Virus record (IMG/VR): IMGVR_UViG_3300045988_105328
Coordinates: 1 to 41,884 of that record
From: a virus
Length of the DNA stretch: 41,884 bases
Strand: one strand, 5' to 3'
The notes under the pieces: model-generated
What the model was told of the DNA's origin: nothing
The model's database searches: none
Seen by the model: the letters and a program-made list of their open reading frames with translations, nothing else
In this document: piece by piece, positions 10,301-41,884 of the stretch
How positions within the stretch are numbered: the first letter of the stretch is position 1
Layout: each line of letters starts with the position of its first letter
Made by a program: the position numbers and the translations under genes

Positions 10301-10939
10301 ATGAAACAAATTAAAACAAAATTATTAGAGAATATGTTTCATCCAGTAACCTCTAGACAAATTATTAAACAAGCCTTAAAAATGTATGTACCTACGGGAA
10401 AATATAAAAAAAGATTCATTTTTGCAAACATTGTATGTATTATTCCAACAGTAATGATGGGAATATCCATTGATACGTACACACTTTTTCTGTCGGGATG
10501 TGAAAAAATAAATAATACAGTTATTGCAATATTTGGAATTGTTTTTACTGGATATGCCTTGTTCCAAGCACTCATAAATAATGAGTTATTGATTCGGATG
10601 GTCAATGACGATTCTAATAATGAATCAGGGAAGAATAAATTGCAGGAAACAAATGAAACTTTTACGGAACTGATGATGTTGTGTGTTATTTCTATTATGG
10701 TTAACATTTTTTTGGGGTTATTAATTGCTAGCCTTTCGTCAGATTTTGTAATATTTGATAAAAAAGAATGTAACGATATTATTGCTATAGTTCTTTTGCA
10801 AATATATTTTGTATTTCATGCAAATATTCTTTTAGAACTTAAAAGTTTTATTTTTAATACTTTTCAGTTATTTAATTTGCACGCAGGGACTAAGATAATA
10901 GAAATAATAGAAGATTCTAAAAAAAAGAGTGAAGAATGA
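10301..10939 (+). CDS. Unknown 212-aa integral membrane protein with about 4 TM segments (cassette gene B)
   Basis: ATG 10301 lies 8 nt after aggagg. Hydrophobic stretches are FIFANIVCIIPTVMMGISI, TVIAIFGIVFTGYALFQALI, LMMLCVISIMVNIFLGLLIASL and IIAIVLLQIYFVFHANILL. Confidence 0.75.
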   Translation: MKQIKTKLLENMFHPVTSRQIIKQALKMYVPTGKYKKRFIFANIVCIIPTVMMGISIDTYTLFLSGCEKINNTVIAIFGIVFTGYALFQALINNELLIRMVNDDSNNESGKNKLQETNETFTELMMLCVISIMVNIFLGLLIASLSSDFVIFDKKECNDIIAIVLLQIYFVFHANILLELKSFIFNTFQLFNLHAGTKIIEIIEDSKKKSEE

Positions 10940-10944
10940 CTTAT

Positions 10945-10970
10945 AAAAGGCACCCTCCGGGGTGCTTTTC
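10945..10970 (+). terminator. Rho-independent terminator closing the cassette
   Basis: gcaccc-tccg-gggtgc stem, extended by flanking A/T pairs and followed by ttttc. Confidence 0.65.
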
Positions 10971-11002
10971 TAATGCAATAAGCCCAGAATGAAGGTGGTG
11001 AA

Positions 11003-11731
11003 GTGAGTGAAACACAGAACTATATTTTAGCCGAAAAAGATTACATGGCTGGAATGAAATATAAGGACATCGCTGCAAAGTATGGAGTGACTTTGAACAC
11101 AGTGAAATCCTGGAAAGTCCGCTATGGATGGAATAAAAAAAGTGTGCACACAAAATCAGAAAAAGTGTGCACACAAAAAAAGAAGCACGGAGGCCAGCCT
11201 GGAAATAAAAATGCTGTTGGGCATGGTGCTCCAAAAGGGAACCAGAACGCTGTGAAGCACGGGCTTTTCTCTCGATATCTTCCAGAAGATACTCAGGAGC
11301 TTTTCTTTTCTTTGGATTTTTCAGATCCGCTGGAATTATTGTGGGATCAGATTAAGCTGGCTTATGCGGCCATCCTACGAGCGCAGTCAGTTATGTATGT
11401 AACTGGAAAAGAAGACAAAACAGTTGAGAAAATTGAGGAGAAGAGAGGAAAAATTATTGGAGAACGGTGGGAAATCCAACAGGCGTGGGATAAGCAGGCT
11501 ACGTTTCTGCAAGCTCAGGCCAGGGCCCAAGCAGAATTACGGTCTCTGATTAAGCAATATGATGAAATGCTACACAAGAACTGGAAATTGGCGACAAAAG
11601 AGCAGAAAGCCAGAATTGCACAGTTAAAGGCCCAAACACAGAAAATCACGGGAGAGGGGCTTGAAGTAGAAGATATGTCGGAAATCGAGGCGGAGATCTA
11701 TGAAGCAGATCAGAAAAAAGAAAACGCTTAA
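11003..11731 (+). CDS. terS: Terminase small subunit
   Basis: N-terminal HTH (YKDIAAKYGVTLNTVKSWKVRYGW) and repeated GxPxGNxNAVxHG motifs, both typical of Firmicutes phage TerS. It lies directly upstream of terL. Confidence 0.8.
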   Translation: MSETQNYILAEKDYMAGMKYKDIAAKYGVTLNTVKSWKVRYGWNKKSVHTKSEKVCTQKKKHGGQPGNKNAVGHGAPKGNQNAVKHGLFSRYLPEDTQELFFSLDFSDPLELLWDQIKLAYAAILRAQSVMYVTGKEDKTVEKIEEKRGKIIGERWEIQQAWDKQATFLQAQARAQAELRSLIKQYDEMLHKNWKLATKEQKARIAQLKAQTQKITGEGLEVEDMSEIEAEIYEADQKKENA

Positions 11732-13070
11732 TTATGTGTTTTCTGAAAAGCATAAAGATTATATCCGGGCCTGTCGTGATTGCGAATTCAATGTGGCGGA
11801 AGGAGCTGTCCGGGCTGGGAAGACGGTAGACAATGTTTTTGCATTTGCTCAAGAATTGAAAACGACACCTGACAGAATCCACCTTGCGACAGGATCCACA
11901 GTTGGAAATGCCAAGCTAAACATTGGTGTCTGTAATGGACTTGGTCTGGAGAATATATTCAGGGGACAATGCCACTGGGGGAAATTTAAGGATAATGAGG
12001 CTCTGTTTGTGAGAGGGCCTGATACCGGATGGCGACAGAGGATTATCATATTTGCGGGCGGGGCAAAAGAAGACAGCTATAAACGTATCCGAGGAAACTC
12101 TTATGGTATGTGGATCGCTACTGAAATAAGCCTCCATCATGATAAAACGATCAAGGAGGCCAATAATCGTCTGCTGGCGGCGCGGCGATTAAAGATATTT
12201 TGGGACCTAAATCCTGATAACCCGAAACATCCAATATACACAGATTACATAGACAAGTACAGGGATATGGCCGCCGCGGGCAACTTCCCTGGGGGCTACA
12301 ACTATATGCACTGTACGATCTATGATAATAAAACTATCACTGCTGAGCGCCTGAAGCGGATAGAGAGCAGATATGACAAAAACAGTATCTGGTATATGCG
12401 GGATATCAAGGGTATGCGTGTTGTGGCGAGTGGCCTTATCTACCGTAGATTTGCGGATGACGTTAGCGCCCAGCAATATACATTCCGTCTGGTGGATAAG
12501 CCCAAAGATATCATGGAGATTATCCTTGGGATAGACTTTGGCGGATCTGCTTCCGGCCATTCTTTTTCTGCAACCGCCATTACCAGAGGATACAGATTTG
12601 TTGTTGCTCTAGCGTCTGAGCTGATTCCTTGTAAGGACAGGAGCGGTAATCAGATAGAGATTGATCCAGAGCTATTAGGTAGCATGTTTTGTGATTTTGT
12701 ACAGCGGATATTAAGCGTATATGGTTTTGTCACAGCCGTATATGCGGATTCTGCAGAGCAGACGTTGATCGCTGGAATCCGCAGCAGCCTCAGAAAGCAT
12801 GGCCTTGGATGGATCAGAGTGGAAAATGCGCTCAAGACGGAGATCAATGACCGGATAAACGCGCTTGCTATCTTAATGGCGCAGAGAAGATTTTTCTATG
12901 TGGAAAATCAATGCAACAGTCTGGAAACAGCGCTGTGCACGGCTGTATGGGATCCAGATGAGATTACGAAAAATGTCAGGTTGGATGATGGAACGAGCGA
13001 TATAGACAGCCTGGACAGTTTTGAGTATACATTTGAGCGGCGGATCAGCCAGCTCATCAAATATGGATAG
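11700..13070 (+). CDS. terL: Terminase large subunit
   Basis: 456 aa with the Walker A-like motif EGAVRAGKT and a C-terminal nuclease-like block (LGIDFGGSASGHS). It lies between terS and the portal gene. Confidence 0.85.
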   Translation: MKQIRKKKTLNYVFSEKHKDYIRACRDCEFNVAEGAVRAGKTVDNVFAFAQELKTTPDRIHLATGSTVGNAKLNIGVCNGLGLENIFRGQCHWGKFKDNEALFVRGPDTGWRQRIIIFAGGAKEDSYKRIRGNSYGMWIATEISLHHDKTIKEANNRLLAARRLKIFWDLNPDNPKHPIYTDYIDKYRDMAAAGNFPGGYNYMHCTIYDNKTITAERLKRIESRYDKNSIWYMRDIKGMRVVASGLIYRRFADDVSAQQYTFRLVDKPKDIMEIILGIDFGGSASGHSFSATAITRGYRFVVALASELIPCKDRSGNQIEIDPELLGSMFCDFVQRILSVYGFVTAVYADSAEQTLIAGIRSSLRKHGLGWIRVENALKTEINDRINALAILMAQRRFFYVENQCNSLETALCTAVWDPDEITKNVRLDDGTSDIDSLDSFEYTFERRISQLIKYG

Positions 13071-14447
13071 GTGAGGCAAATGAGATATACGAAAATGTAT
13101 GAGGCGATCGCAAAGATCCTAAAAACTGAAGAGCAGATATCTTTTGTGATGTCAGATATCATGGCTAAGCGTATCGAGCTATGGTCTATGCTTTTCCAAG
13201 ATAAGGAACCTTGGCTCAGTGATACGGTAAAAAGTTTGAATCTCCCCGCCTCTATTGCTGGAGAGATTGCAAGGCTTGTGACCCTTGAGATGGACACTAA
13301 AGTGGAGGGAAGCGCAAGAGCGGCGTATATAGATAAAGTCTATCAAAAGACAGTTAAAAAATTGAGGCTCTATGTAGAATTTGCCTGTGCAAAAGGAGGT
13401 CTTATCCTAAAGCCATATGTGACAGACTCTGGGATGTGTACAGAATTTATACAGGCAGACAGTTTTTTTCCTCTTTCCTTTGATGACGATGACAATATAA
13501 CACGCTGCGTCTTTCTGGACCAGTTTCGAGATGGGAATTCCATCTATACAAGGATTGAATATCATAAGCTTGATGGAGGATTTCTGACGATCAGGAATAG
13601 GGCTTTTGTATCTATGACAGATGGAGTTTTAGGATCGGAGATACCACTTCATACCGTACCCAAATGGGGCGGGCTTGAGAGCCAGATGATATTTGAAAAT
13701 GTTCAGAAACTGCCGGTTGGATATTTTAAGGTCCCGATGGCGAATCAGGAAGACAATACCAGCCCCCTGGGGGTGTCCTGCTATAGTCGAGGGGTTGGTC
13801 TCATTAAAGAGGCCGATGAAAGATATTCTCAGATTAGCTGGGAATACAAAGGGAAAGAGGTCGCGGTACACATAGCGGAGAGCCTGCTATCCAGAAATCC
13901 CCAAACCCAAGAACTTGAGTATCCAGATGGAAAGAAACGGTTATATCGTGAGCTGGATTATAACTCTGGAGCTGTAGATAAACCGCTGTTAGATGTGTTT
14001 TCTCCAGATATTCGTGATCAGTCCCTGTTTAATGGACTGAACCAGCAGTTGAGGCGAGTAGAGTTTGCGTGTAATCTGGCTTATGGGACATTGTCAGATC
14101 CAAACAATACGGACAAAACAGCGGAAGAGATACGGGCCAGCAAGCAAAGATCCTATTCCTTCGTGGAATCCTGTCAGAGTGCGTTACAGGACGCTCTGGA
14201 CGATTATATCACAGCCATTGATTTCTGGGCTACAATATATAACTTGGCGCCATTCGGGAACTATCACACATCCTACAAATGGGATGATTCTCTTGTGGTG
14301 GATACAGAGAAAGAACGCCAAACAGATCGAGCGGATGTTGCGATGGGGGCAATGCAGCTATGGGAATACCGTGCAAAGCACTATGATGAGGACGATGAGA
14401 CCGCCAAGCGGATGGTGGCGCAACCGGCCGATCTGATCGAGGAGTAG
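13071..14447 (+). CDS. Portal protein
   Basis: About 455 aa, immediately after terL and before the MuF-like gene. The start is ambiguous (GTG 13071 or ATG 13080). Confidence 0.75.
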   Translation: MRQMRYTKMYEAIAKILKTEEQISFVMSDIMAKRIELWSMLFQDKEPWLSDTVKSLNLPASIAGEIARLVTLEMDTKVEGSARAAYIDKVYQKTVKKLRLYVEFACAKGGLILKPYVTDSGMCTEFIQADSFFPLSFDDDDNITRCVFLDQFRDGNSIYTRIEYHKLDGGFLTIRNRAFVSMTDGVLGSEIPLHTVPKWGGLESQMIFENVQKLPVGYFKVPMANQEDNTSPLGVSCYSRGVGLIKEADERYSQISWEYKGKEVAVHIAESLLSRNPQTQELEYPDGKKRLYRELDYNSGAVDKPLLDVFSPDIRDQSLFNGLNQQLRRVEFACNLAYGTLSDPNNTDKTAEEIRASKQRSYSFVESCQSALQDALDDYITAIDFWATIYNLAPFGNYHTSYKWDDSLVVDTEKERQTDRADVAMGAMQLWEYRAKHYDEDDETAKRMVAQPADLIEE

Positions 14448-14457
14448 GTGATACCGA

Positions 14458-16020
14458 ATGATGAGCCAAGGAGAAATTGAGGCGCTGACCATTACAATGG
14501 AGCAGGCAGCGGCACGTCTGGAGCGAGACATCATGCTGGATATCGTCCGCAGGATCAAAGCCAATGCCGGAATGACATCTACGGCAGAGTATCAGATCAA
14601 TCGCCTGCGGCAACTTGGGCTATCAGATTCATACATACAGGAGCAGATCCAGACCTATCTCAAAGTGTCCAACGATGAGATGGAGCGGATTTTTAAGGAG
14701 GTCGTCGAAAATCAGTATGAGAAACTTAATAGCGCCTATGACGCCGCCGGAGTATTGCAGAAGCCCTTTGGGGATCATGTGGCAATCCAGACGATGATTT
14801 CTTCCGCACTTACCCAGACGGATGAAACATTCAAGAATATCTCTCAGAGCATGGGGTTTTCCGTCAAGAATGGCGGGAAAACGGAGTTTCTGCCGGTGGC
14901 TGAATATTACCAGCAGACATTGGACAATGCCATTCTTGGGATAGCAACAGGGGCTTTTGATTATAATTCCGCGCTGAACAGAGTGGTCAAGCAGATGACT
15001 ATGAGCGGTCTCAGGACTATTGATTATGCCTCTGGGAGGTCCTATCGGATAGAATCCGCTTCCAGGATGGCACTCATGACAGGTTTCTCTCAAATCACTG
15101 GCCATATGAATGAACAGGTGGCCGCGGAGTTAGGAACAGATGATTATGAGGTGTCCTACCACATGGGTGCCAGACCTACCCATCAATGGTGGCAGGGAAG
15201 GGTGTACAGCTACCAAGAGCTGATCTATACTTGTGGACTTGGCACTGTTACAGGATTGTGCGGGATCAACTGCTATCACTGGTATGAGCCCTTCATCCGT
15301 GGCGTATCCGTCAGAAATTATACGGACCGTGAACTGGACGCAATGATCCGGGAAGAGAATCGCCCAAAATCCTATCAGGGAAAGGAATATACCACTTACA
15401 CAGCCCTGCAGAATCAGCGAAAGATGGAGCTCCTAATGCGAAAGCAACGCCAGGATATTATGCTGTTGAAAGAAGGAAGTGGAAGCTCCCTTGATATTCT
15501 GGCGGCACAGGCCAGATATAGGTACACGATGAATGACTATGTATCATTCTCCAAGGCCATGAACCTACCACAGCAGACGGAAAGGGTGTATATGGATGGA
15601 CTTGGAAAGGTAGGAAGGAGCGGAACGATTCCAAGGCCAAAACGCAGAGAGAAAAATACGGGGGCTTTTTCTGTACTTGAAGTTCCCATGCAAAAAAGAA
15701 CCGTTGACCGTATTGCTAAGAAATATGGAATAACTATATCCGATTTGCAGATAAAAATACAAAGAGACGAGGAACATTTGCGGCGTCCGATGATGGGATG
15801 TGCTGATTATGATAATATCGGAAGGATTGACTTGTTTCCAAATTCTTTCAAAAATGAGGAAGCGCTGATCAGGACACTGATACATGAGCGATGCCATGTG
15901 CTGCAGCTTAGAAAATATGGTAAGAAATATACGCAGGAGCATATCAATAAGATGGAGGAAGTTGCATACAAGTTCGAAGATTTCTGGTATAATATAGTCA
16001 GAAAGAGGGTGCAGCCATGA
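14458..16020 (+). CDS. MuF/SPP1 gp7-class minor head protein with a C-terminal HExxH extension
   Basis: It lies after the portal gene. ARPTHQWWQGRVY matches the MuF RPxH...G+V block. The C-terminal ~125 aa carry HERCH (nt 15883-15897). Confidence 0.75.
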   Translation: MMSQGEIEALTITMEQAAARLERDIMLDIVRRIKANAGMTSTAEYQINRLRQLGLSDSYIQEQIQTYLKVSNDEMERIFKEVVENQYEKLNSAYDAAGVLQKPFGDHVAIQTMISSALTQTDETFKNISQSMGFSVKNGGKTEFLPVAEYYQQTLDNAILGIATGAFDYNSALNRVVKQMTMSGLRTIDYASGRSYRIESASRMALMTGFSQITGHMNEQVAAELGTDDYEVSYHMGARPTHQWWQGRVYSYQELIYTCGLGTVTGLCGINCYHWYEPFIRGVSVRNYTDRELDAMIREENRPKSYQGKEYTTYTALQNQRKMELLMRKQRQDIMLLKEGSGSSLDILAAQARYRYTMNDYVSFSKAMNLPQQTERVYMDGLGKVGRSGTIPRPKRREKNTGAFSVLEVPMQKRTVDRIAKKYGITISDLQIKIQRDEEHLRRPMMGCADYDNIGRIDLFPNSFKNEEALIRTLIHERCHVLQLRKYGKKYTQEHINKMEEVAYKFEDFWYNIVRKRVQP

Positions 16021-21837: not shown

Positions 21838-24800
21838 ATGGCAAGCGACGGAACAATAAAAATCACTACAGAACTTGATAATCAAAAAGCAGAGCAGGCC
21901 CTATCAAAGTTTGGGAGCATTGTAAAAAAGGGCGTTGCCGCTATCGGAATCGCTAAAATCACCTCTGAAGTGGCGCAATTGGGAGCTTATGTTGCCCAGA
22001 CCGGGATCCAGTTTGAATCCGCCTTTGCTGGTGTTCAGAAGACGGTAGACGCTACCGATGAAGAATTGGCTGGCTTCCGGGAAGGAATCCGGGATATGGC
22101 GAAGGATATCCCACAGACAGCCTCCGAGATTGCTGGAGTTGCGGAAGCGGCTGGACAATTAGGTATTAAAAATGAAAATCTCTTGGATTTTACCCGGACC
22201 ATGTCTGATCTGGGTGTGGCCACGAATATGTCTGCGACAGAAGCAGCGACATCCCTTGCGAGGCTTGCAAATATCACGCAAATGCCGCAGGAAAATTTTG
22301 GCCGCCTTGGGTCTACGATCGTTGCTCTTGGTAATAACCTGGCGACAACAGAATCCGAGATTACAGAGATGGGCCTGCGCCTTGCAGGAGCCGGAAAACA
22401 GGTCGGAATGACAGAAGATCAGATCCTGGGCCTGGCCGGAGCGATCTCTTCCGTCGGAATTGAGGCGGACGCTGGAGGATCTGCGGTGTCTACGGTCATG
22501 ACAAAAATGCAGTTGGCCGTAGAAGAGGGCGGAGAATCCCTGGAGCAGTTTGCAAACGTGGCAGGCATGTCGGCGGAGGAATTCCAGCAGGCGTTCCGGC
22601 AAGACGCCGCTCAGGCTCTTGTGGCGTTCGTGGAAGGTCTTGGGACAATGGAATCCAGAGGGCAGAGTGCGATTGCCACATTGTCCGATATGGAGATCAC
22701 GGAGATCCGCCAGAGGGACGCTCTTTTGCGTCTGGCGGGGGCCGGAGATACGCTGTCTGAAGCTCTGGGGATTGCCTCTCAAGCATGGGACGAAAATAAT
22801 GCCCTTACCAATGAGGCAGAACAGAGATATCAGACACTGGAAAGCCAGATTCAGATCCTGAAGAACAATGTGGACGATTTTGCGATCAGCCTCTATGATG
22901 GAATCCGAGACCCTATGGCTGAGGCGGTCACGGAATCTATTGGCTACGTACAGCGCCTGCATGACGCATTTAACACAGGCGGGGTCACTGCGGTGGCGTC
23001 TGAAATGGGCGCAGTTTTTAATGATGTGGCTGACGATATCGCAGGGACCAGCCAGGCAGCCGCTGGACTGGTGACTCCGCTGAAAGATGTGGCGAACGTA
23101 GGCGGGAATCTGGCCAAGGCAGTTCTTCCAGTGCTGGGAGATGGGGCGAAGTTTACGGCTGAGAATTTTGACGCGATTCTCCCGGTATTAACGGGAGTGG
23201 TCGCAGGATATAAGCTGTACAATACCATAGGCCAGAAGACGGCCACTGTACTCAAAGCCAGTGCCGCAGCGACAGCGGCGTTGAATAAAATGGAAAAAGC
23301 CAACGCCCTGCTACTGGTAGCGCAAGAAGGTGGGTTGACCACAAGGCAGACGCTCCTGGCTTTATATAATAAACAGATCCCCATTACAACAGCGGCAACG
23401 GGATTATGGACCAAAGCTCAGACTGCCCTCAACACTGCCATGAATGCCAACCCAATCGGAGTGGCAGTGGCAGGGGCAACAGCCTTGATTGCAGTTGGGA
23501 CGGCGATCAAAAGCGTTGTGACCCGTGAGACGGAGGCAGAGCGGGAACACTCCCAGGCGCTGAAGGAATCCGCTGAGGCAGCTACCGAGAATCGGAAAGC
23601 GGCTGAGGAAAGAAAACAGGCTTATGAGGAACTGGTAGAATCCCAAAACACCCAGGCGGCGGGAGATGTCGCACAGCTTGATCGATTGAAAGGCTTAAAC
23701 GATGAGCTAAATTCGATCGTGGACGCAAATGGCCGGGTAAAGGAAGGGGAAGAGGATAGAGCCGCTTTCATTACCTCCCAGTTATCCAGTGCCCTTGGTG
23801 TGGAAATCTCCATGACCGATGGCGTGATCAGTAATTACCAGGAGCTCCAGGGAGAGATCCAAAGCCTGATCCAGCAGAAACGGGTCGAGGCTGTCATGTC
23901 TGCACAGCAGGCCAAGTATGAGGAGGCTGTGGCGAACCAGATGCAGGTGGCGGCGGAAGCCTCCGCGAATCTGACGGCCATGAAGCAGGCTGAGAACGAT
24001 GTGAAGCGGGAAAGCGCAGAACTGTCTCAGTTAGAGGAAGAATATAATCAGGCGGTACTTGACGGGAATAAAAAACAAGTTAGTGTCTTGGGCGAAAAGA
24101 TTAAGCGCCAGGAAGAAGACGTTGAGAAAGCCAAAGAAGCCTACGAAGAAAATAAGAAGGCTTACGAAGGAAATACGGAACTGTTGGCGCAGTATTCCAA
24201 TGATATCGACATGTACACCGCTCTCGCGGAAGCGGCGGCTACAGGGAACGCAGAAGCGATCGAGGCGGCGATCAGCCAGATAACGGCTGGTATTAAAACG
24301 GCCAGCAATGCCACCAGCGAAGAGCTTCAGCAACAGGTAGTCAATGTCTCCAACATGGAGAACCTGATCCGTCAGGAAGTGGAAAAGGGAACACCTGGAT
24401 TTACCCAGGCCATGTTAACCCAGGCGCAAGATGCCACGACGGCCGCATTGGAAGAATTTGCGAAGGCCGCTCCTCAGACGGCCGCGGAGTTGGCGAAAGT
24501 CCCTCCAGAGGCAGTAGCCGCATTGGTGGCCGGTGATATGCGAGGCCAGCTTTCCGCCGAGGCCAGTGGGGCCGTGGATGGAATGCTGGAGCAGTTTGAT
24601 GGACTGGACGCGGAGACGCAAGAAGCGTTTGCGCAGGCGATCTACGGCGCCCTGGAAGGCCTGGAGGGATTCGAGGATCTGAAAGACCCCGCAGAAGAAG
24701 GGGTGGAAGCGTTTCTTGAAACTCTCAGAACCGCATTGGACGAGCACTCTCCATCCAAAAAGACGGAAGAAATCTTCCGGCTTGCGATGGAAGGAGCCGC

Positions 24801-25845
24801 CCAGGGAATCGAGAGTGGGAAAGAAGGCGTCCTAACGAAAGGCGGGGAACTCATTTCCGCGTTTCTGGCATTGTTTTCCGGCGGCGAAGAAGGCGGGGGC
24901 CTTGGCGGAAAACTGCAGGGCATTGGCTCCACTGTAATGAGTATGTTTGGGATTGGCGTGTCCTCCCAAACGGAGAATTCCCAGGCCGCTGGGAAAGCCA
25001 ACGCTGACGCCGCAAACGCAGGAGCCGGATCTGTGGACCCAACCGGGACTGGTAGCAAATTTGGCGGCCAGTACAACGCCGGAGTTTCCGGGATGTCTGG
25101 AGCGGCAAGAGGTGTGGGTAGTGTCCTTGGAAGCAATGCAAACGCAGGTGCTGGATCTGTGACAGGAACAGGAACCGGCGGAAAGTTTGGTTCTCAGTAC
25201 GCCTCTGGAGTTGGCGGGAAAAGCGGAGAAGCACGATTGAAAGGTGAAGCTCTTGGTGACAGCGCGGAAGCAGGAGCAGATACCGCAGATGGAAGCAGTG
25301 CTGGATCAAATTTTGGATCAGGATTTGTAAAAGGGATTGGGGACTGGATTAGCGATGCTGCAAGCAAGGCTGCTGAGTTAGCAAAAAGTGCTTATAATGC
25401 GGCAAAGAGCTGGCTGGATGAGCATTCTCCATCTCGAAAAACAAGGCAATTAGGTAGGTGGTTTGACCAAGGCCTTGCCGGCGGAATCGAGGATGAAAAG
25501 AGTGCGGTCGAGAAAGCGTCTCAAGATGTTTCTCAGGCGGCTCTGGATAACCTGAAAGGGCTTGATATCGAGGCCGCAATGGCTGATGTGTACTTTTCCG
25601 TGGACGCGAATCAGGCGAAAGTGGCTGATAATATCGTGAGTGCGGTAGGGGCAAGGGAAGCGCTTGCCTGGAAGGACAGGGAAAAGAATCTTACCGTGTC
25701 CCTATCCGATGAGGACATAAAGAAACTGGCAAGAGAATTTGCGGCGATTGTTTCTACGTCTATCGCAAATGAGATGGACGGAATGGGAATCTATGCGAAG
25801 AACCGAGAGTTTGCGCGCGTGGTGAGGGAGGTTGTAGGACAGTGA
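21838..25845 (+). CDS. Tail tape measure protein
   Basis: 1335 aa, A/E/Q-rich and helical, with a TP901-type N-terminal core. It has G-rich C-terminal repeats and two LDEHSPS(K/R)KT motifs. Confidence 0.92.
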   Translation: MASDGTIKITTELDNQKAEQALSKFGSIVKKGVAAIGIAKITSEVAQLGAYVAQTGIQFESAFAGVQKTVDATDEELAGFREGIRDMAKDIPQTASEIAGVAEAAGQLGIKNENLLDFTRTMSDLGVATNMSATEAATSLARLANITQMPQENFGRLGSTIVALGNNLATTESEITEMGLRLAGAGKQVGMTEDQILGLAGAISSVGIEADAGGSAVSTVMTKMQLAVEEGGESLEQFANVAGMSAEEFQQAFRQDAAQALVAFVEGLGTMESRGQSAIATLSDMEITEIRQRDALLRLAGAGDTLSEALGIASQAWDENNALTNEAEQRYQTLESQIQILKNNVDDFAISLYDGIRDPMAEAVTESIGYVQRLHDAFNTGGVTAVASEMGAVFNDVADDIAGTSQAAAGLVTPLKDVANVGGNLAKAVLPVLGDGAKFTAENFDAILPVLTGVVAGYKLYNTIGQKTATVLKASAAATAALNKMEKANALLLVAQEGGLTTRQTLLALYNKQIPITTAATGLWTKAQTALNTAMNANPIGVAVAGATALIAVGTAIKSVVTRETEAEREHSQALKESAEAATENRKAAEERKQAYEELVESQNTQAAGDVAQLDRLKGLNDELNSIVDANGRVKEGEEDRAAFITSQLSSALGVEISMTDGVISNYQELQGEIQSLIQQKRVEAVMSAQQAKYEEAVANQMQVAAEASANLTAMKQAENDVKRESAELSQLEEEYNQAVLDGNKKQVSVLGEKIKRQEEDVEKAKEAYEENKKAYEGNTELLAQYSNDIDMYTALAEAAATGNAEAIEAAISQITAGIKTASNATSEELQQQVVNVSNMENLIRQEVEKGTPGFTQAMLTQAQDATTAALEEFAKAAPQTAAELAKVPPEAVAALVAGDMRGQLSAEASGAVDGMLEQFDGLDAETQEAFAQAIYGALEGLEGFEDLKDPAEEGVEAFLETLRTALDEHSPSKKTEEIFRLAMEGAAQGIESGKEGVLTKGGELISAFLALFSGGEEGGGLGGKLQGIGSTVMSMFGIGVSSQTENSQAAGKANADAANAGAGSVDPTGTGSKFGGQYNAGVSGMSGAARGVGSVLGSNANAGAGSVTGTGTGGKFGSQYASGVGGKSGEARLKGEALGDSAEAGADTADGSSAGSNFGSGFVKGIGDWISDAASKAAELAKSAYNAAKSWLDEHSPSRKTRQLGRWFDQGLAGGIEDEKSAVEKASQDVSQAALDNLKGLDIEAAMADVYFSVDANQAKVADNIVSAVGAREALAWKDREKNLTVSLSDEDIKKLAREFAAIVSTSIANEMDGMGIYAKNREFARVVREVVGQ
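25012..25340 (+). repeat. Tandem ~126-nt (42-aa) glycine-rich repeats inside the tape measure gene
   Basis: ANAGAGSVDPTGTGSKFGGQYNAGVSGMSG... and ANAGAGSVTGTGTGGKFGSQYASGVGGKSG..., plus a partial third copy (GSSAGSNFGSGFVKG). Confidence 0.8.
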
Positions 25846-26678
25846 AAGACATATACTATGTGAATAACCGTGGTGTAAAGTTGGACTTGCTGAAGACTCC
25901 CTATCTTTTGCAGACTGCAGAATTATTTGACTATGAGTGGAAATATGAAAGTGTTGAATCATCCGCTGTGTCGGGACGGATTACAAGTTTTGCGAAGGAG
26001 ATCACAGAGAGGCCTTTCACGTTGAGTATTTTGAATTATTCCCGCGAATCATATGAAGCGGCCATCAATCGATTTTTTGAAACCGTAGAATACGACGTGC
26101 TAAACAAAACGCCTGGCAAGCTGTATATAGGAAATCAGTATCAGCGCTGCTATTTTATCGCATCTGAAAAGACAGGATGGGAATATGATATCGAACTTTT
26201 GGATGTTGACGGCACTTACGTCGCAGAACGCCCGTTTTGGATCACGGAACAGAATTATACCTTTAATCCCAGCTCTGGGGAGCCTATGGGAGAATATCTT
26301 GATTTCCTGTTTGATGTTCCCTTTGATCTTACGGGAGACGCGGCAGGGATTGGAAATATCCAGATAGATCACTATGCCACTTGTAACTTTTTGCTGACTG
26401 TCTATGGTCCGTGCACCAACCCAAGAATCTCGATTGGTGGAAACATCTATGAAATTGAGACAAAACTCGACACTGGAGAATACCTACAAATTGATTCCCT
26501 GGCTGGAACGGCGATACGAACAAAAGTCGGAGGTCAGAGGGTCAACGAATTAAATAACCGGGCCAAGGAATATGAGTTGTTTTCCCTGATTCAACCCGGA
26601 TACAATGTCGTGTCTTGGGATGGTAGTTTTGGGTTTGACCTTGTGATCTATATAGAGAGGAGTGAGCCGGAGTGGTAA
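25842..26678 (+). CDS. Distal tail protein (Dit, by position)
   Basis: 278 aa, overlapping the tape measure stop. Confidence 0.65.
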   Translation: MKDIYYVNNRGVKLDLLKTPYLLQTAELFDYEWKYESVESSAVSGRITSFAKEITERPFTLSILNYSRESYEAAINRFFETVEYDVLNKTPGKLYIGNQYQRCYFIASEKTGWEYDIELLDVDGTYVAERPFWITEQNYTFNPSSGEPMGEYLDFLFDVPFDLTGDAAGIGNIQIDHYATCNFLLTVYGPCTNPRISIGGNIYEIETKLDTGEYLQIDSLAGTAIRTKVGGQRVNELNNRAKEYELFSLIQPGYNVVSWDGSFGFDLVIYIERSEPEW

Positions 26679-27667
26679 CCATGATGATGACTGACGCGAA
26701 TGGCAGAGATGTTGGGACTCTTGACTATAGCATATCTCTTGATATGGACCTTGGCGATACCAACGATTTTGAGTTTGAAGTTGATCAGTCTATTTGGGAC
26801 TCAGAATTAATGGGGTATGGCTGCCGGCTATATATACCAGAAACAGAGTACGGAGGGATTATCGGGGATATAGAGGTAGTCACTAAAACCGCAACGGCCA
26901 CATTGACGGGAGATACCTGGCGGGGAATGCTTACCAAGAAGATCATCGAGCCGCCCTCCGGGCAAGACCATAAGACAGTATCTGGAGAGCTTAATACTAT
27001 TTTAAGAAGTCTGATTGAGCCTGAATTTTCTGGACTATTTGTCGTTCCGCAGGAGGATACTGGCGTTGAGGTGTCCAATTTCCAGTTTGATCGCTTTTGC
27101 ACCTTGTTGGACGGTCTGGAAGACATGCTGACTAGTGTCGGGTATCGCCTGGACATACGCTATAAAAGCGGAGACGCCGGAGAGTCTGGATGGGTGGAAA
27201 TCCAGGCCGTAGAGGCTGAGAATTATTCAGAAACCATAGAATACAACCGGGACAATAGAATCAATTACGATGCCAGGGACTACCGGCGTGGAATTAACCA
27301 TCTAATCTGCGCAGGAAACGGAGAGGGCACGGATCGGACGGTATTACACTTATATGTGCAGTCAGACGGCAGTGTAGGATCTACGAAATATTATACCGGT
27401 CTGGAAGAACGTGTAGCTTTATACTCTTATACGTCACAGTCGGATGTGGAGCAGCTCAGGAAGGATGGGACAAAACGTCTCCAAGAACTGATGAACTACA
27501 AGCAATTTGAAATGTCTGTAGAGGATGTGGATTTGGAAATTGGGGATACGGTTTCTGGAAGGGATTTCACAACTGGGATCCTGGTGCAAAAACCGATTGT
27601 ACAAAAAATCCTAAAAATTGAAAAAGGGAAAATCCAGGTTGAGTACAAACTGAAGGGAGATGATTAG
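26672..27667 (+). CDS. Tal-position baseplate/tail protein (Gp37-like)
   Basis: About 330 aa after Dit. The start is ambiguous (GTG 26672 or ATG 26681). Confidence 0.55.
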   Translation: MVTMMMTDANGRDVGTLDYSISLDMDLGDTNDFEFEVDQSIWDSELMGYGCRLYIPETEYGGIIGDIEVVTKTATATLTGDTWRGMLTKKIIEPPSGQDHKTVSGELNTILRSLIEPEFSGLFVVPQEDTGVEVSNFQFDRFCTLLDGLEDMLTSVGYRLDIRYKSGDAGESGWVEIQAVEAENYSETIEYNRDNRINYDARDYRRGINHLICAGNGEGTDRTVLHLYVQSDGSVGSTKYYTGLEERVALYSYTSQSDVEQLRKDGTKRLQELMNYKQFEMSVEDVDLEIGDTVSGRDFTTGILVQKPIVQKILKIEKGKIQVEYKLKGDD

Positions 27668-28459
27668 ATGGAACTGGTAACAGGATTTAAGGGAGAACCG
27701 CACATATCCGCAGAAAATTGGGCCGACCTGAATAGGGGGATTGTAGGAGAGGGATCTTATGTCCTTCCCGGCGGTGAAAAGTTCCGGGCCGAGTTGGTGA
27801 CAAACAATTTGCTAAAGATATATGATGGCTGCGGAATAATGCAGGGACGACAGATAGTAATTCCAGCGGGCCAGTCGGATGAAATTACGATTGACAACGG
27901 GACCCAAGGCGAAAAGAGAATTGATCTTGTGGGGGTGCGTTATACAAAAGATGACTCCTCCAAAATAGAATCTACAGCTCCTTTTTATCTAAAGGGGACG
28001 CCAGCAGAAAGCGATCCAGTAGCCCCAGCATACACAGAAGGAGATATCCGGGCTGGAGATTTGACCGCAGACTGGCCGCTCTATGAGCTTGAATTAGATG
28101 GGCTTAATGTTGTATCGGTTACCCCGCTGTTCGAGACTTTATTGACCGGTGCGGATGTGAAGGCGGAGCTTGAAGCACTAAATGACAATAAAGTAAGTGG
28201 ATGGGGCGACCTAGAAGAAGTATCTAATCCATACACACCGGGAGAAGATGGTTCCATTCGCATATATTACAGGCCGAGCGGGAATACAAACGCAACTGTA
28301 TATGCTACACAAGATGGAAACGGCTGTTTTTACGGTACATCTGCTGGCGGTTCGAGTTTAATGCAATATTTCCCGGCAAAATCCGGACACACATACCAGG
28401 GGCAAGCTTCGCAACCAGGTACTATTCAACTCGCTTTCATGCCGCTCCAGAAGGAATAA
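27668..28459 (+). CDS. Tail fibre / receptor-binding protein (currently expressed C-terminus)
   Basis: 263 aa after the baseplate genes. Its last 90 codons lie inside the putative invertible segment. Confidence 0.65.
   Translation: MELVTGFKGEPHISAENWADLNRGIVGEGSYVLPGGEKFRAELVTNNLLKIYDGCGIMQGRQIVIPAGQSDEITIDNGTQGEKRIDLVGVRYTKDDSSKIESTAPFYLKGTPAESDPVAPAYTEGDIRAGDLTADWPLYELELDGLNVVSVTPLFETLLTGADVKAELEALNDNKVSGWGDLEEVSNPYTPGEDGSIRIYYRPSGNTNATVYATQDGNGCFYGTSAGGSSLMQYFPAKSGHTYQGQASQPGTIQLAFMPLQKE
28174..28188. repeat. Left inverted repeat AGCACTAAATGACAA
   Basis: Perfect reverse complement of 28762..28776. It lies in the fibre reading frame and encodes ALND. Confidence 0.9.
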
Positions 28460-28460
28460 T

Positions 28461-28793
28461 CTACTCAGCCGCCCAATACGAGAACGGAATTGCAAAATAA
28501 GTGGCTGACGTTGTCCCAGCACTGGAAAGAATCATCTGTCCTTGTGTATTGATTTGGACGATTCCAAAGGTGGAGTCTCTTAAAGCGATTGTTCTTGGCG
28601 GGGCTGGCAGACCACTTGCAATCGTCCGGCCTTGTACTGGAGTCCCGATAACATAAGGATATACCTTTACTTCTCGACCGATTCTTTGGGCCCATGTGTT
28701 GTTTGTTGCAAAACCAGAAGTATTAAGAGTTAGAGGTATATCTTCTGGATCGGCTTCCAATTTGTCATTTAGTGCTAAAAACCTACAGAAAAT
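28461..28793 (-). other. Silent alternative fibre C-terminal cassette (open frame, no RBS, no ATG)
   Basis: The minus frame is open from 28793 (IFCRFLALNDKLEADPEDIPLTLNTSGF...) to TAG at 28461-28463. The only start candidate is TTG 28760, with no Shine-Dalgarno sequence upstream. The sequence is beta-rich, like a fibre tip. Confidence 0.6.
28762..28776. repeat. Right inverted repeat TTGTCATTTAGTGCT
   Basis: Reverse complement of 28174..28188. On the minus strand it also reads A-L-N-D in frame with the silent cassette. Confidence 0.9.
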
Positions 28794-28820
28794 TTAAAAA
28801 ACGAAAGGAGAGTGATCTAT

Positions 28821-29555
28821 ATGAAAATTATTTTTAATGACGCCACAGAGCTGCAAGTCCAGCAGGTGCAGCAGCATGGTGATTATCTTAGGATCCTTAC
28901 AGTCTCCGCCACGCCGGAACAGCTCAGAGGAATTTTTGAAGACCCGGTAAAAACCAAAAGCATGACTGTAGAGGAACGTGGCCAGCGCGGAGAACCCCTG
29001 GAGGGGTACACAACCTTTTATCGGACGGAAGAATACACCGGGCAGATTTATGGCGTGGTAATGTACAAGCCTGATCGGACCCCGGAGGTACAGACGGAAA
29101 AGGCCCAGGCGGCGGTGCTGGTTGCCCAGATCCAGGCCCAGGAGCTGACGGATGAGCAAGCGATCACCGTCAAGGCAATCTATCCAGAGTACGATCCAAA
29201 TGGCGTACTATACCCATCATATTACAAGGTCCAGCACAATGGAGATCTGTATAAATGTCTCCAAGAGCACACATCCCAGCCAGGCTGGGAACCCGGTGCT
29301 GCTCCAAGCCTTTGGGTATTGGTAGAGACAGGTGAGCAGGCCGGAACGATAGAAGACCCAATCCCCGTCCCGGACACGGTGACAACGGCGGGAATGGAGT
29401 ATGAATATGGGAAATATTATCTAGAAGGAGAAACTATCTATCTATGCCGGAGACAGGGCGTAGAAGATCCAGAGTCTATGTACGGGCAGAAAGTAACCCT
29501 AACCTTCCCGCCGTCCGTGATGGTTGGACAGTATTTCGAAATTGCGGAGGAATAG
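28821..29555 (+). CDS. Tail-associated protein with a CBM5/12-like carbohydrate-binding motif
   Basis: ATG 28821 after aaaggagag. YKVQHNGDLYKCLQEHTSQPGWEPGAAPSLW fits the aromatic CBM5/12 pattern (Y..C.Q.H....W.P......LW). Confidence 0.6.
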   Translation: MKIIFNDATELQVQQVQQHGDYLRILTVSATPEQLRGIFEDPVKTKSMTVEERGQRGEPLEGYTTFYRTEEYTGQIYGVVMYKPDRTPEVQTEKAQAAVLVAQIQAQELTDEQAITVKAIYPEYDPNGVLYPSYYKVQHNGDLYKCLQEHTSQPGWEPGAAPSLWVLVETGEQAGTIEDPIPVPDTVTTAGMEYEYGKYYLEGETIYLCRRQGVEDPESMYGQKVTLTFPPSVMVGQYFEIAEE

Positions 29556-29558
29556 ATA

Positions 29559-29870
29559 ATGTACATAGACGCACAGACAATCATTACGGCAGCGGCTTTG
29601 ATCGGAGCTTTGGGCGTGATTGGGGGAATGTTAATCACGGCGTATAAATTTGCAAAGAAGCCGGCTGAATTGGAAGAAAAATTAAAGAAAATCAGGGAAA
29701 CTCACGAAGAGGATATCAGGAAAATAAACGAAGAGCAATGCCTGATCACCTATGGGCTGCTTGCTTGCCTGAAAGGTCTTCGGGAACAGGGGTGTAATGG
29801 CCCGGTAACAGACGGGATTAACCGGATTGAGAAACACTTAAACAAACAAGCTCACGATATGGAGGAATGA
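29559..29870 (+). CDS. Lysis-cassette membrane protein (N-terminal TM plus coiled coil)
   Basis: Hydrophobic segment IITAAALIGALGVIGGMLITAY followed by charged helical sequence. It lies directly upstream of the holin gene. Confidence 0.5.
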   Translation: MYIDAQTIITAAALIGALGVIGGMLITAYKFAKKPAELEEKLKKIRETHEEDIRKINEEQCLITYGLLACLKGLREQGCNGPVTDGINRIEKHLNKQAHDMEE

Positions 29871-30206: not shown

Positions 30207-30235
30207 AGGGGGCGGGAGACTGCCCCTTTTTGTTT
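30207..30235 (+). terminator. Hairpin plus T-run between holin and endolysin
   Basis: aggggc ... gcccct stem with an 8-nt loop, followed by tttttgtttt. Confidence 0.45.
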
Positions 30236-30268
30236 TGCGCCGGCGTAAGCCGGAGAAAGGAGAATATC

Positions 30269-31318
30269 GTGGCGGTATTGATAGGACATGCAAGCATTAG
30301 CGAAAAAGGGACTATTAACGGGACAAAGGGAGACAGCACCGGGAAAGAGGTGTATACCAGAAACTGGTACAGCAAGCCTTGGGACTACATGGCCATCCAT
30401 CCAGACCCGGACGTACGGGAGCGGCACGCGCGGGCAGTAGAAGCGGCGTGCGCCAACAACTATATCGGATACGGGCAGAGCGACCGGAATACACTCAACA
30501 CACGAGCCAAGGCTGTAGGGTACGATCTGTCCAAGATTAAGACCAAGTGCAACTGCGACTGCTCCAGCCTCCAGAACGTGGCGGCGGTGGCGTCCGGAGC
30601 GCAGGGAATGACATACGGCAGCAATGGATGGACCACATCCTCCATGCGGGCAGCATTGGAAAAAGCCGGTTATAAGATCATCACGGCCAGCGCATACCTG
30701 AAGAGCTCTGCCTATTGCGTACGCGGGGCGATCTATGTCAAGCCAGGATCGCACACGGTCTGCGGACTGAGTAACGGATCCAAGGCCAGCCAGACCCTGA
30801 AAAAGGCTGGGGCCTCCGGAAGCACCACATCCGGTGCGGACGAGGCTCGGATCCTGAAGCGGGGGATGACCGGGGAGGATGTCCGAGATATGCAGCAGGA
30901 TCTGATCGCGGCGGGGTATAGCTGCGGACCGGATGGGGCAGACGGAGATTTCGGCGCCAATACCGAGGCGGCGCTTAAAAGCTTCCAGGCAGATCACGGA
31001 CTGGAGGTAGACGGCGAGTACGGGCCGCTCAGTAAGGCCAAGTTGGAGGGGGCCGGCGGGAGCACAGGAGGAAAGGCGGAGGCGGCTAAAAGTTTTGACA
31101 AGTCTCTGGCCGGGACATACACAGTAAATACTAAGACAGATCCGCTTGTCTTGCGTGCTGGAGCAGGAACAAGCAAAAAAAGACTGACCAGTATGCCCAA
31201 GGGGGCAAAAGTGCAGTGCTATGGGTATTATACGGACGCCGCTGATGGCCGGTGGCTGTATGTGGTCTATGACGGCGTGACAGGATTCACGCACTCAAAG
31301 TACCTTAAAAAGCAGTAA
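30269..31318 (+). CDS. Endolysin: N-terminal Cys/His (NlpC/P60-like) domain, PG_binding_1 domain and SH3b domain
   Basis: GTG 30269 after aaaggag. GDFGANTEAALKSFQADHGLEVDGEYGP fits PG_binding_1. The C-terminal sequence AKVQCYGYYTDAADGRWLYVVYDGVTGFTHSKYL is SH3b-like. The catalytic fold call (CDCSS ... GSHTV) is inference. Confidence 0.8.
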   Translation: MAVLIGHASISEKGTINGTKGDSTGKEVYTRNWYSKPWDYMAIHPDPDVRERHARAVEAACANNYIGYGQSDRNTLNTRAKAVGYDLSKIKTKCNCDCSSLQNVAAVASGAQGMTYGSNGWTTSSMRAALEKAGYKIITASAYLKSSAYCVRGAIYVKPGSHTVCGLSNGSKASQTLKKAGASGSTTSGADEARILKRGMTGEDVRDMQQDLIAAGYSCGPDGADGDFGANTEAALKSFQADHGLEVDGEYGPLSKAKLEGAGGSTGGKAEAAKSFDKSLAGTYTVNTKTDPLVLRAGAGTSKKRLTSMPKGAKVQCYGYYTDAADGRWLYVVYDGVTGFTHSKYLKKQ

Positions 31319-36971: not shown

Positions 36972-37037
36972 TAGGTCCACCTCTCCTTCTATATGCATTT
37001 ATTATATACGAAAATGGATACTTTGTAAATATAAAAT

Positions 37038-37137
37038 ATTCGTAAAAACGAATAAATACGGAAATCGGAATATTTTATATTGACAAAATACTGAATAAAG
37101 AATATTATGTTATTAAGAAATTCGATATTACGAATTT
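37038..37137. promoter_or_regulatory. Lysis-lysogeny switch region with two TTCG-N-CGAA palindromes flanking a rightward promoter
   Basis: ATTCGTaaaaACGAAT (37038-37053), AAATTCGatattaCGAATTT (37118-37137), and TTGACA-17-TATTAT (37080-37108). Confidence 0.65.
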
Positions 37138-37483: not shown

Positions 37484-37681
37484 ATGTGGATTCGTAGTAA
37501 CAAGTTTCTGGAGCTAGAAAAAAAGATAGCTATCCTCGAAAAAGAACAGCTATCAATAAAGGAATATGTGAAAGAGGCTATCAAATCAGATGAAGAACTG
37601 ATCAAAATCGTAAAAGAGTTTAGTGCTGACATTAAGACATTAGAATCCATCAATGCAAATAGCACGAAACTGACTTCCTAA
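37484..37681 (+). CDS. Hypothetical coiled-coil protein
   Basis: ATG after gaggaggtgagg. 65 aa. Confidence 0.5.
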   Translation: MWIRSNKFLELEKKIAILEKEQLSIKEYVKEAIKSDEELIKIVKEFSADIKTLESINANSTKLTS

Positions 37682-38449
37682 AGTAGTGACGGTTATACAT
37701 TTCCGATAAATATGTATATGCTCGGCTCTGGTCTCAAGTTGATTAAGCTTTTGAAATTTTGCAGAGGCTTCCAGGTAAATTTTAGAGGATTTTACGAAAG
37801 AGTAGGACGTTCCATCTCTCAATTCAAAATCATTTAGCTTGATTAATCCTAGCCGCATTAGATTATCAAGAGATACGCGAACCTGTTCTTCTGAAGTAGA
37901 TGGGATATTTATATCGGTTATAAGATCTAGAGAAAACTGTTCTTCTTGAGCGCCTCCGGCTAGATGTAATCCATTTAGTTGCATTACGATGCTCAAAGTT
38001 GCAGCGGGGGTTGTTTGGCGTATAGAACAAGCTTTAAAAACTAGCGCATCATTAGGAGAAAGCTGTTTAATTATTTCAACAAAGCAAGGATGAACCTGAT
38101 CTTTGGTATCTAAAAACATGGCCTTCGCTAAAAGATTCGCATAAAGATCGTGCAATTCGTGATTGGTTATGCAGTATGCAATTGATTGGAGTGCTGGAAC
38201 AGCCACATATGGTTCTGGAGAAATTATTTTATTAGGGTCAGAAGAGGCAAGTTTTTCTTCAAGAGATTTTTTGGTTTCCTCAACATTGAATTCCCTTTTA
38301 AGAATCCAGCAGTCCAAACGAGAAAGAGCAGCATTTATAGCGCGAGGAATACGACCTATAAATTTTCCGGTTTCTGATGCCGCTGGGTGAGCAATATCAT
38401 CATATACTTTATCAATAGTTTCGTTTGGAAGTTCAAAATTATCAAGCAT
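37640..38449 (-). CDS. Abi-alpha (DUF4393)-like abortive-infection protein
   Basis: The N-terminus DKVYDDIAHPAASETGKFIGRIP and the central LHDLYANLLAKAM...VHPCFVEIIKQLSPNDALVF resemble the Abi_alpha family as I remember it. ATG 38449 lies 8 nt after aaaggaa. The gene is opposite in orientation to its neighbours. Confidence 0.55.
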   Translation of the reverse strand: MLDNFELPNETIDKVYDDIAHPAASETGKFIGRIPRAINAALSRLDCWILKREFNVEETKKSLEEKLASSDPNKIISPEPYVAVPALQSIAYCITNHELHDLYANLLAKAMFLDTKDQVHPCFVEIIKQLSPNDALVFKACSIRQTTPAATLSIVMQLNGLHLAGGAQEEQFSLDLITDINIPSTSEEQVRVSLDNLMRLGLIKLNDFELRDGTSYSFVKSSKIYLEASAKFQKLNQLETRAEHIHIYRKCITVTTLGSQFRAICIDGF

Positions 38450-38481
38450 GATAATCATTCCTTTCATCATTTGATAGGAAA

Positions 38482-41622: not shown

Positions 41623-41884
41623 ATGAAGCATTTGAGTATCGACATCGAGACGAAGAGTGGCGCGGAGATCGGGAAGACAGGCCTGTATCGCTATGCGCAG
41701 GATCCAGACTTTGCGGTACTGCTGTTCGCCTATATGGTGGATGATGGCCCGGTTCACGTGGTGGATTTGACTGCCGGGGAGCAGATTCCAAAAGAAGTCC
41801 TCTCGGCATTGCAGGATCCGAATGCCACAAAACACGCCTATAACGCGGCGTTTGAATGGTACTGCCTAAACCAGGCGGGGTATG
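41623..41884 (+). CDS. Family A DNA polymerase, N-terminal 3'-5' exonuclease part (continues at nt 1)
   Basis: ATG 41623 after aaaggtgag. MKHLSIDIETKS is an ExoI DxE motif. The frame runs into the 55-nt terminal repeat and on to 1..1767. Confidence 0.9.
   Translation, partial: MKHLSIDIETKSGAEIGKTGLYRYAQDPDFAVLLFAYMVDDGPVHVVDLTAGEQIPKEVLSALQDPNATKHAYNAAFEWYCLNQAGY
41830..41884. repeat. Terminal direct repeat identical to 1..55
   Basis: Base-for-base identity with the first 55 nt of the window. Confidence 0.95.

Follow-up and report, generated by a model that had tools for sequence, protein, structure and literature searches.

The window analysed here, the whole 41,884-nucleotide (nt) stretch of IMG/VR virus record IMGVR_UViG_3300045988_105328 (positions 1 to 41,884), carries a receptor-binding protein (RBP) gene whose 3′ end lies in a 603-bp segment bounded by a perfect 15-nt inverted repeat. 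We read this segment, with a probability of about 0.6, as what is left of a tyrosine-recombinase shufflon for diversification of the RBP head, a derivative with two cassettes and no recombinase. It is a real member of the Rin-like class of RBP shufflons, found here in a new host clade and in a minimal form that has no recombinase of its own. A preliminary description of the window had proposed a switch of the Mu G or P1 C type acting on a tail-fibre tip; the tip-exchange anatomy that it described is borne out, and the mechanism is not, as the recombinase embedded in the arrays of related phages is of the tyrosine type, as in Rin. Coordinates of all features are collected in Table 1.

The two arms of the repeat (28174-28188 and 28762-28776) are exact reverse complements, as first described, and form the only perfect inverted repeat of at least 15 nt with a spacing of 50-1000 nt in the window. 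First-order Markov shuffles (n = 1000) give an expectation of 0.037 such pairs per window, very close to the earlier rough figure of 0.04, with at least one pair in 2.7% of the shuffles. The 12-mer core of the repeat has no further copies in the 41.9-kb genome, which leaves two sites in total. On the plus strand the left arm, AGCACTAAATGACAA, supplies the third base of the codon for E169, the codons for A170, L171, N172, and D173, and two bases of codon 174. The minus strand is read in the same phase, as L-A-L-N-D-K-L-E-A-D-P..., in a frame that begins after a TAA at 28794-28796 and stays open for 105 codons to a TAG at 28461-28463, separated from the plus-strand stop by 1 nt. Both the shared ALND phase and the tail-to-tail gap had been reported beforehand and were recovered from the two frames. 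The minus frame contains neither ATG nor GTG ahead of an internal Met near its C-terminus, and its first possible start is a TTG at 28760 without a Shine-Dalgarno sequence, so that the cassette is start-less, as was also reported. Inversion of the segment would yield an in-frame protein of 273 residues, composed of residues 1-173 of the RBP and 100 new ones; the fusion had been predicted correctly, with the constant part placed at residues 1-168. Arm-to-arm identity covers 15 nt in the window and some 20 nt when the family is considered. In alignments with the relatives L220, L221, and L034, which have other cassettes, identity restarts exactly at 28762.

At the protein level, PHROGs 9994, 25635, and 13141 match residues 1-174 of the RBP only, the end of the match coinciding with the repeat, which is the signature of a conserved N-terminus followed by a variable C-terminus. 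The constant shoulder domain and neck helix are assigned to residues 1-173 (nt 27668-28186). In the model of P0001, a homologue with 74% identity, a confident N-terminal domain (predicted local distance difference test, pLDDT, ~90) is followed by a helix at residues 161-179 that contains the junction. In the PDB, Foldseek places lactococcal phage RBPs first for this model, those of phage p2 (2x53, 2wzp, 1zru, 2bsd) and phage 1358 (4l92), each with probability 1.0. The assignment of the N-terminal fold rests on P0001 because the model of the window protein itself (alignment A3) is poor in this domain (pLDDT <50); a PDB sequence search with the RBP gave nothing useful. Judged from these models, the gene encodes a siphophage RBP with shoulder, neck helix, and head, with the repeat located in the predicted neck.

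Both cassettes appear to encode genuine heads. The expressed one, tip A, is modelled as a confident β-sandwich (pLDDT ~90) with weak fold matches to C1q/TNF-like trimeric heads, carbohydrate-binding modules, and phage tail-fibre tips. For the silent one, tip B, the hypothetical fusion of the RBP N-terminus with tip B was used as a protein query and retrieved a natural full-length protein, P0001 (275 residues), at 74% identity and 99% coverage. Further natural fusions, P0014, P0023-P0029, P0033, and P0034, were found at ~47-55% identity and 92-100% coverage; those at ~50-55% identity include P0014, P0027, and P0029. Tip B is thus, by sequence homology, a genuine alternative head. N-termini that are 98-99% identical bear still other heads, namely tip E in P0002, tip D in P0003, and tip A′ in P0004. 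The ratio of nonsynonymous to synonymous substitution rates (dN/dS) of tip B against the expressed copy in L001 is 0.26, and values of ~0.1-0.5 were obtained for cassettes across the family where measurable, suggesting that the cassettes are under purifying selection.

The same architecture is found across the family. Among 193 loci gathered with an N-terminal alignment (A1), 115 are informative, having N-terminal identity of at least 40% and at least 700 nt downstream, and 65 of these share a layout in which a perfect inverted repeat (9-22 nt) marks the junction and is accompanied by an in-frame, start-less minus-strand cassette of at least 60 codons. In most loci with this layout the minus cassette ends 0-13 nt from the RBP stop, and the segments span 546-1136 bp (median ~700). 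The repeat differs by lineage (for example AGCACTAAATGACAA, CTAAATAGCAA, CTGAATTAAGTAGCAATTT, or AATAAGTATTTGTC), and both arms match within each genome. The minus-strand frame and the repeat at the homologous position, on which the preliminary description had staked its proposal, are thus retained in these 65 loci, the repeat with a lineage-specific sequence and the frame with natural full-length fusions in addition. It is hardly credible, given these data, that a chance inverted repeat happens to lie beside a spurious antisense open frame: a 15-mer pair does occur in the stated 2.7% of shuffled windows, but this explanation is refuted by the natural fusions, the family-wide layout with co-varying arms, and the inversion isomers and silent copy of tip A described below.

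Direct comparison of related genomes identified 20 pairs of inversion isomers in nine independent groups in which the expressed and silent heads are swapped; homologous segments have thus inverted repeatedly in related phages, with breakpoints at the repeats. Between L004/L009 and L008/L050 the left flank is collinear at 98% identity, a 666-nt segment is reversed at 91%, and the right flank is collinear at 89%, with breakpoints at the repeat arms (10493-10506 and 11125-11138). L104 and L162 have a collinear left flank (99.5%), a reversed segment (98.6%), and no detectable similarity in the right flank. For L165 and L071, the left flank is collinear at 99.9% and the segment reversed at 99.5%, and on the right the next 1.2 kb is reversed in place. 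This 1.2-kb stretch, at about +720 to +1900 nt from the junction in two otherwise 99.9% identical sequences, contains a tyrosine recombinase gene, which must therefore lie on a second invertible segment.

The ends of assembled contigs are also unevenly distributed at these loci. In 22 of the 193 loci the contig stops within the interval from -22 to +94 nt relative to the junction; the following 200 nt contain no contig ends, and farther out they occur at about 2 per 100 nt. As such short repeats alone do not break assemblies, the pile-up points to heterogeneity within samples. No fold-back contigs were found by blastn. Three loci, L062, L147, and L094, contain two complete convergent RBP genes with diverged N-termini and a shared cassette region (in L147, 10001-10885 on the plus strand and 10889-11794 on the minus strand); each is probably a chimera, assembled from two co-occurring phages by way of the shared cassette, and none was used as evidence. 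In Clostridium phage phiCs5676-1 (L037, OR574845.1; 12878-14556) a cassette gene, 0016, lies downstream of the RBP homologue, gene 0015, and converges with it. An IS200-like Y1 transposase (14128-14556) occupies the expected position of the right repeat, and its insertion has apparently put the switch out of action. In L002 the 11-mer CTAAATAGCAA (at most 1 mismatch) forms a further inverted pair at ~10683 and ~11341, 660 nt apart, near the prophage end and distant from the RBP gene.

Cassette shuffling is evident, from sequence comparison, in the lineage of the window as well. The window (L219) and L222 express tip A and hold tip B silent, and are identical over the stretch compared. L034 and L035, whose flanks match those of the window at 100% (1190 nt) and 99.8% (1238 nt) identity, have tip D in the expressed position and an inverted, silent copy of tip A, its protein identical to that of the window with 5 synonymous differences. 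L036 (flanks ~92-94%) expresses A′ and L220 and L221 (right flank 100% from the right repeat onward) express A″, all three with D silent, and L033 (left flank 96.5%) expresses E with C′ silent. The expectation that relatives would show either orientation is borne out for the family, by the nine isomer groups and by the silent tip A of L034, and not for the A/B pair of the window, which was found in one orientation.

The origin of this arrangement is suggested by relatives in which a recombinase gene is part of the array. In at least 16 loci, among them L041 and L121 (N-terminal identity to the window 63%), a tyrosine recombinase gene encoding 325-370 residues begins directly after the right repeat. 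Its product contains Phage_integrase and SAM_4 domains and has XerA, XerC, and XerD as best NCBIfam matches, and by these matches is predicted to be a XerC/D-like tyrosine recombinase. The order in full-length relatives is the constant part, site 1 (forward), heads a/b, site 2 (reverse), the tyrosine recombinase, site 3 (forward), heads c/d, site 4 (reverse), and then the MKI[I/T]FND... gene. L182 matches L186 except that it lacks the 1.8 kb from site 2 to site 4, a pair of direct repeats; this deletion takes out the recombinase and one cassette pair, and what remains, set between the same flanking genes, is the architecture of the window. No tyrosine recombinase is encoded anywhere in the complete genome of the window: the best tblastn match has an E-value of 0.28, and neither Pfam nor PHROG detected one in the large open reading frames (ORFs) that were scanned.

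A mechanism consistent with these observations would run as follows. Heads A and B share one 15-bp entry sequence, in which the end of the neck helix is encoded. Conservative site-specific recombination between its inverted copies would flip the segment and give the 273-residue protein with head B, and the exchange of heads may direct binding to a different structure on the host surface. Recombination between directly oriented sites would have removed the recombinase together with one pair of heads, giving rise to the form seen in the window, and in the phage of the window the segment would then flip only with a recombinase from elsewhere, provided by a co-resident related prophage or by the host or, less probably, with the phage's own 284-residue serine recombinase. 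The segment may double as a store of spare parts for exchange with related phages.

Several points weigh against this shufflon-derivative reading. The deletion is deduced from a different sub-lineage (L186 and L182), and exact-protein look-ups of the flanking genes returned neither a four-cassette parent of the window lineage nor its B-expressing isomer. The form with tip B fused to the N-terminus of the window lineage was not returned by the database search with the fused protein either. Ten contigs with an identical downstream protein were collected, and all those with the A/B pair that read through (the scaffold of the window, L222, and places reported as similar) have A expressed and B silent. 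Contig breaks in L223, L224, and L226 were considered as proof of inversion and rejected, since they are off the repeat ends and can be explained by strain mixtures. The difference between the window and L034 is more than a flip, as the partner cassette differs and tip A shows a dS of 0.08 between identical flanks. The similarity of the sites to those of recombinase-bearing loci is confounded by the conserved peptide that the site encodes. Finally, the class of loci with an ATTTGTC site (L004, L007, and related loci) is inverted, yet never has an adjacent tyrosine recombinase. Given the uniform orientation and the lack of a tyrosine recombinase, active switching in the phage of the window is at most putative.

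As the ATTTGTC lineages have inverted without an adjacent recombinase, another enzyme or route must be at work in this RBP family, which implies action in trans. We entertain as a tentative possibility that the window, too, holds a switch that has lost its own invertase and yet continues to flip through the action of recombinases from co-resident prophages or the host, or of the ~280-residue protein with Resolvase and Recombinase domains. Perfect repeats and open silent frames in recombinase-less lineages and the inversions in the ATTTGTC lineages are all compatible with it. If the enzymes are those of prophages or hosts, the switch would be shared across prophages; if it is the ~280-residue protein, it would represent a new mid-sized class of serine DNA invertase, widespread in phages of gut Clostridia.

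That the segment is instead a frozen relic, uninverted since the loss of the tyrosine recombinase and with tip B as a silent spare, is in our estimate unlikely, and we would say the same of its corollary that tip B comes to be expressed only when co-infecting relatives recombine, by a homologous or an illegitimate route. Such a state would fit a genome devoid of the cognate recombinase and the uniform orientation in near-identical contigs, and the variation of cassette pairs among almost identical phages (A/B, D/A, A″/D, E/C′) indicates replacement of cassettes and not flipping alone. It is harder to reconcile with arms of 15-16 nt that are still perfect in several recombinase-less lineages of differing sequence, with the purifying selection inferred for the cassettes, and with silent frames that remain open (the chance of 105 sense codons is ~0.6% by our own estimate, (61/64)^105). 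Moreover, the recombinase-less L004 and L008 were inverted relative to each other after their divergence.

The preliminary description had named the serine recombinase of 284 residues, whose gene lies 2.6 kb from the segment, as a candidate invertase, and no specific link between the two was found. According to this explanation the segment would be a self-contained, active switch inverted in cis by the phage's own enzyme, and the ~280-residue Resolvase and Recombinase family would be a new class of DNA invertase. The protein is the sole non-integrase recombinase in the complete genome and belongs to a stable, conserved family (531 homologues at E ≤ 1e-10) and is not a truncated pseudogene. In the window, L033, L039, and L220 it accompanies a separate recombinase of the integrase type, which implies some non-integrative role; all four of the four loci that pair it with the RBP family carry cassettes, and related recombinases adjoin other repeat-bracketed segments. 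Its best NCBIfam matches, CcrB and CcrC, are far under the cut-offs, the match to Mpi scores only 28 bits, and its named-organism homologues are two, from Lacrimispora sp. and [Clostridium] symbiosum. Against a role in cis, the RBP family occurs within 10 kb of this recombinase family in only 2 of 27 viral loci (L195 and L039), and in both a tyrosine recombinase is also present, embedded in the four-cassette array of L195 and, in L039, 7 kb from the segment and 55% identical to the L041 enzyme. The cassette-bearing L036, L001, and L002 have no such serine recombinase beside their lysis genes. Near-identical genomes that carry it and read through show one orientation only, and inspection of the 15-bp repeat by eye, with no formal scan, revealed no internal dyad and no dyad-symmetric half-sites around a central dinucleotide. 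The rare co-occurrence, the tyrosine recombinases alongside, and the absence from cassette-bearing relatives make this enzyme an unlikely invertase of the segment, and we consider a switch driven in cis by it quite unlikely.

A separate repeat was observed near members of this serine recombinase family. Homologues occur in L202, L205, L206, L208, L209, L212, and L213, and in several phages they adjoin helix-turn-helix and Dam-like methyltransferase genes, the latter flanked by inverted copies of TAATAACGCCCCA, a perfect repeat of 13 nt (at 11118-11130 and 11974-11986 in L208, for example). This repeat was rejected as a tail switch, for it encloses a complete Dam-like methyltransferase gene and no tail gene.

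The classical switches of phage tail fibres, Gin/G of Mu, Cin/C of P1, Pin of e14, and Min of p15B, employ serine invertases of the Hin/Gin family of ~190 residues that act on 26-bp dyad sites; they depend on a Fis-bound enhancer, include a tail-fibre assembly gene in the segment, and belong to phages of Gram-negative hosts. The segment of the window resembles them in that a constant N-terminus is joined by inversion to alternative, start-less C-termini in opposite orientation. It differs in having no tail-fibre assembly gene; no gix-like 26-bp site was apparent by eye, and the window lacks a small serine invertase of the Hin/Gin type, its only small serine recombinase being the protein of 284 residues. 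Tail-fibre genes are among the targets of programmed inversion in a bacteria-wide survey (PMC9881135), and in the parts of that survey consulted no mention of the RBP family of the window was met.

A much closer counterpart is the Rin shufflon of Bifidobacterium prophages, in which a constant RBP N-terminus related to the phage 1358 RBP is combined with variable C-terminal cassettes through 11-bp sites by an armless tyrosine invertase (Mavrich et al. 2018, PMC6109161); arrays of the same kind were later reported in Eggerthella prophages (PMC8778435). The N-terminus of the window RBP is homologous to the constant part of Rin (tblastn against Bifidobacterium phage PMBT6: 29% identity, E = 1e-10, 83% coverage) and its predicted fold is like that of the phage 1358 RBP. 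In both systems a short crossover site heads each variable cassette (two in the window, four in full-length relatives), the cassettes are start-less, and inversions are visible between related genomes. An armless, XerC/D-like tyrosine recombinase embedded in the array is a further likeness, shared by the relatives and not by the window. The array of PMBT6 contains TAGCTTTCCGTAACCC three times in direct and once in inverted orientation (TTCCGTAACCC-type sites) and a tyrosine recombinase of 290 residues, to which the relatives' recombinase is not detectably close (BLASTP E = 0.1). The site core is TAAAT[G/A][A/G]CAA here and TTCC[C/G]TAACCC in Rin, the cassettes form convergent pairs here and tandem arrays in Rin, and the hosts are Lachnospiraceae-type Firmicutes here and Actinobacteria for Rin; the window, in addition, has two cassettes only and no recombinase. 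A smaller precedent exists in the bifidophages 689b-1 and Bb423phi2, in which a ~500-bp segment, formed by the 3′ end of one gene together with a small convergent gene, has opposite orientations in related phages, with an 8-bp repeat as the point of inversion. No recombinase gene flanks it, and an invertase in trans was proposed (PMC6109161). The genes at that locus have no assigned function, and the repeat is shorter than the 15 bp of the window. No report of the system described here in Lachnospiraceae-type phages was found in full-text literature searches.

The genome around the segment is that of a temperate siphophage. The window corresponds to scaffold_735 of ENA ERZ28577864 (100% over the region compared), and its termini overlap exactly and directly by 55 nt (1-55 and 41830-41884), which makes it a complete assembly of a circular genome of ~41.8 kb. 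In addition to the genes in Table 1 it encodes structural proteins, including a minor head protein and a head scaffolding protein, and for replication and DNA handling a DNA polymerase A, a VapE-like protein, an SNF2 helicase, and a C5 methylase. The large serine recombinase is probably the integrase, because host-like genes take its place beside the small one in the integrated copy in L220 (a 131-kb contig). Regulators are encoded as well, and the lysogeny module contains an abortive infection gene, Abi_alpha (37640-38470, minus strand). In the lysogeny region there is also a perfect inverted repeat, with arms of 14 nt (37028-37041 and 37068-37081) and a spacer of 26 nt, that is probably a hairpin or operator. 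Relatives were found in a Lachnospiraceae chromosome (LR698958.1) and a [Clostridium] scindens phage, with phiCs5676-1 of C. scindens as the nearest relative that has a cultured host, and many matching records are labelled as human-gut metagenome assemblies. Among GenBank phages, blastn with 27000-29600 gave no match and a protein-level search gave distant relatives only.

Table 1. Features of the segment and of neighbouring genes in the 41,884-nt window.
Feature	Position	Strand	Remarks
Putative invertible segment	28174-28776		603 bp including both arms
Left recombination-site arm	28174-28188	+	AGCACTAAATGACAA; encodes (E)ALND(N/K) of the neck helix
Right recombination-site arm	28762-28776	-	Exact reverse complement of the left arm
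Tip A cassette, expressed	28187-28459	+	90 codons (residues 174-263) and TAA stop
Tip B cassette, silent	28461-28761	-	Start-less, 100 codons beyond the repeat; abuts tip A tail to tail
RBP gene	27668-28459	+	263 residues; after the Dit and minor tail genes
Tape measure	21838-25845		
Dit	25842-26678		
Minor tail protein	26672-27667		
CBM_5_12-domain gene (MKIIFND...)	28821-29555	+	Conserved right flank; in relatives follows the last shufflon site
Endolysin	30230-31318		Two small ORFs between the CBM_5_12-domain gene and this gene
Serine recombinase, 284 residues	31351-32205	-	Resolvase and Recombinase domains, no zinc ribbon
Large serine recombinase, 532 residues	33558-35156	-	Probable integrase; not expected to act on the segment

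The host range of human-gut phages is largely unmapped, and the RBP family described here is abundant in gut metagenomes, with relatives encoded in 383 metagenome and 528 viral stretches and with flip-cassettes in more than half of the informative loci. One practical caution is that assemblies of such phages break or turn chimeric at the RBP locus. The cassettes provide a natural catalogue of exchangeable heads joined at a defined neck helix, which may be useful for the engineering of host range. The finding extends RBP shufflons of the Rin type from phages of Actinobacteria to Lachnospiraceae-type phages, and self-deletion between directly oriented sites would offer a simple model for the origin of recombinase-less "orphan" switches.

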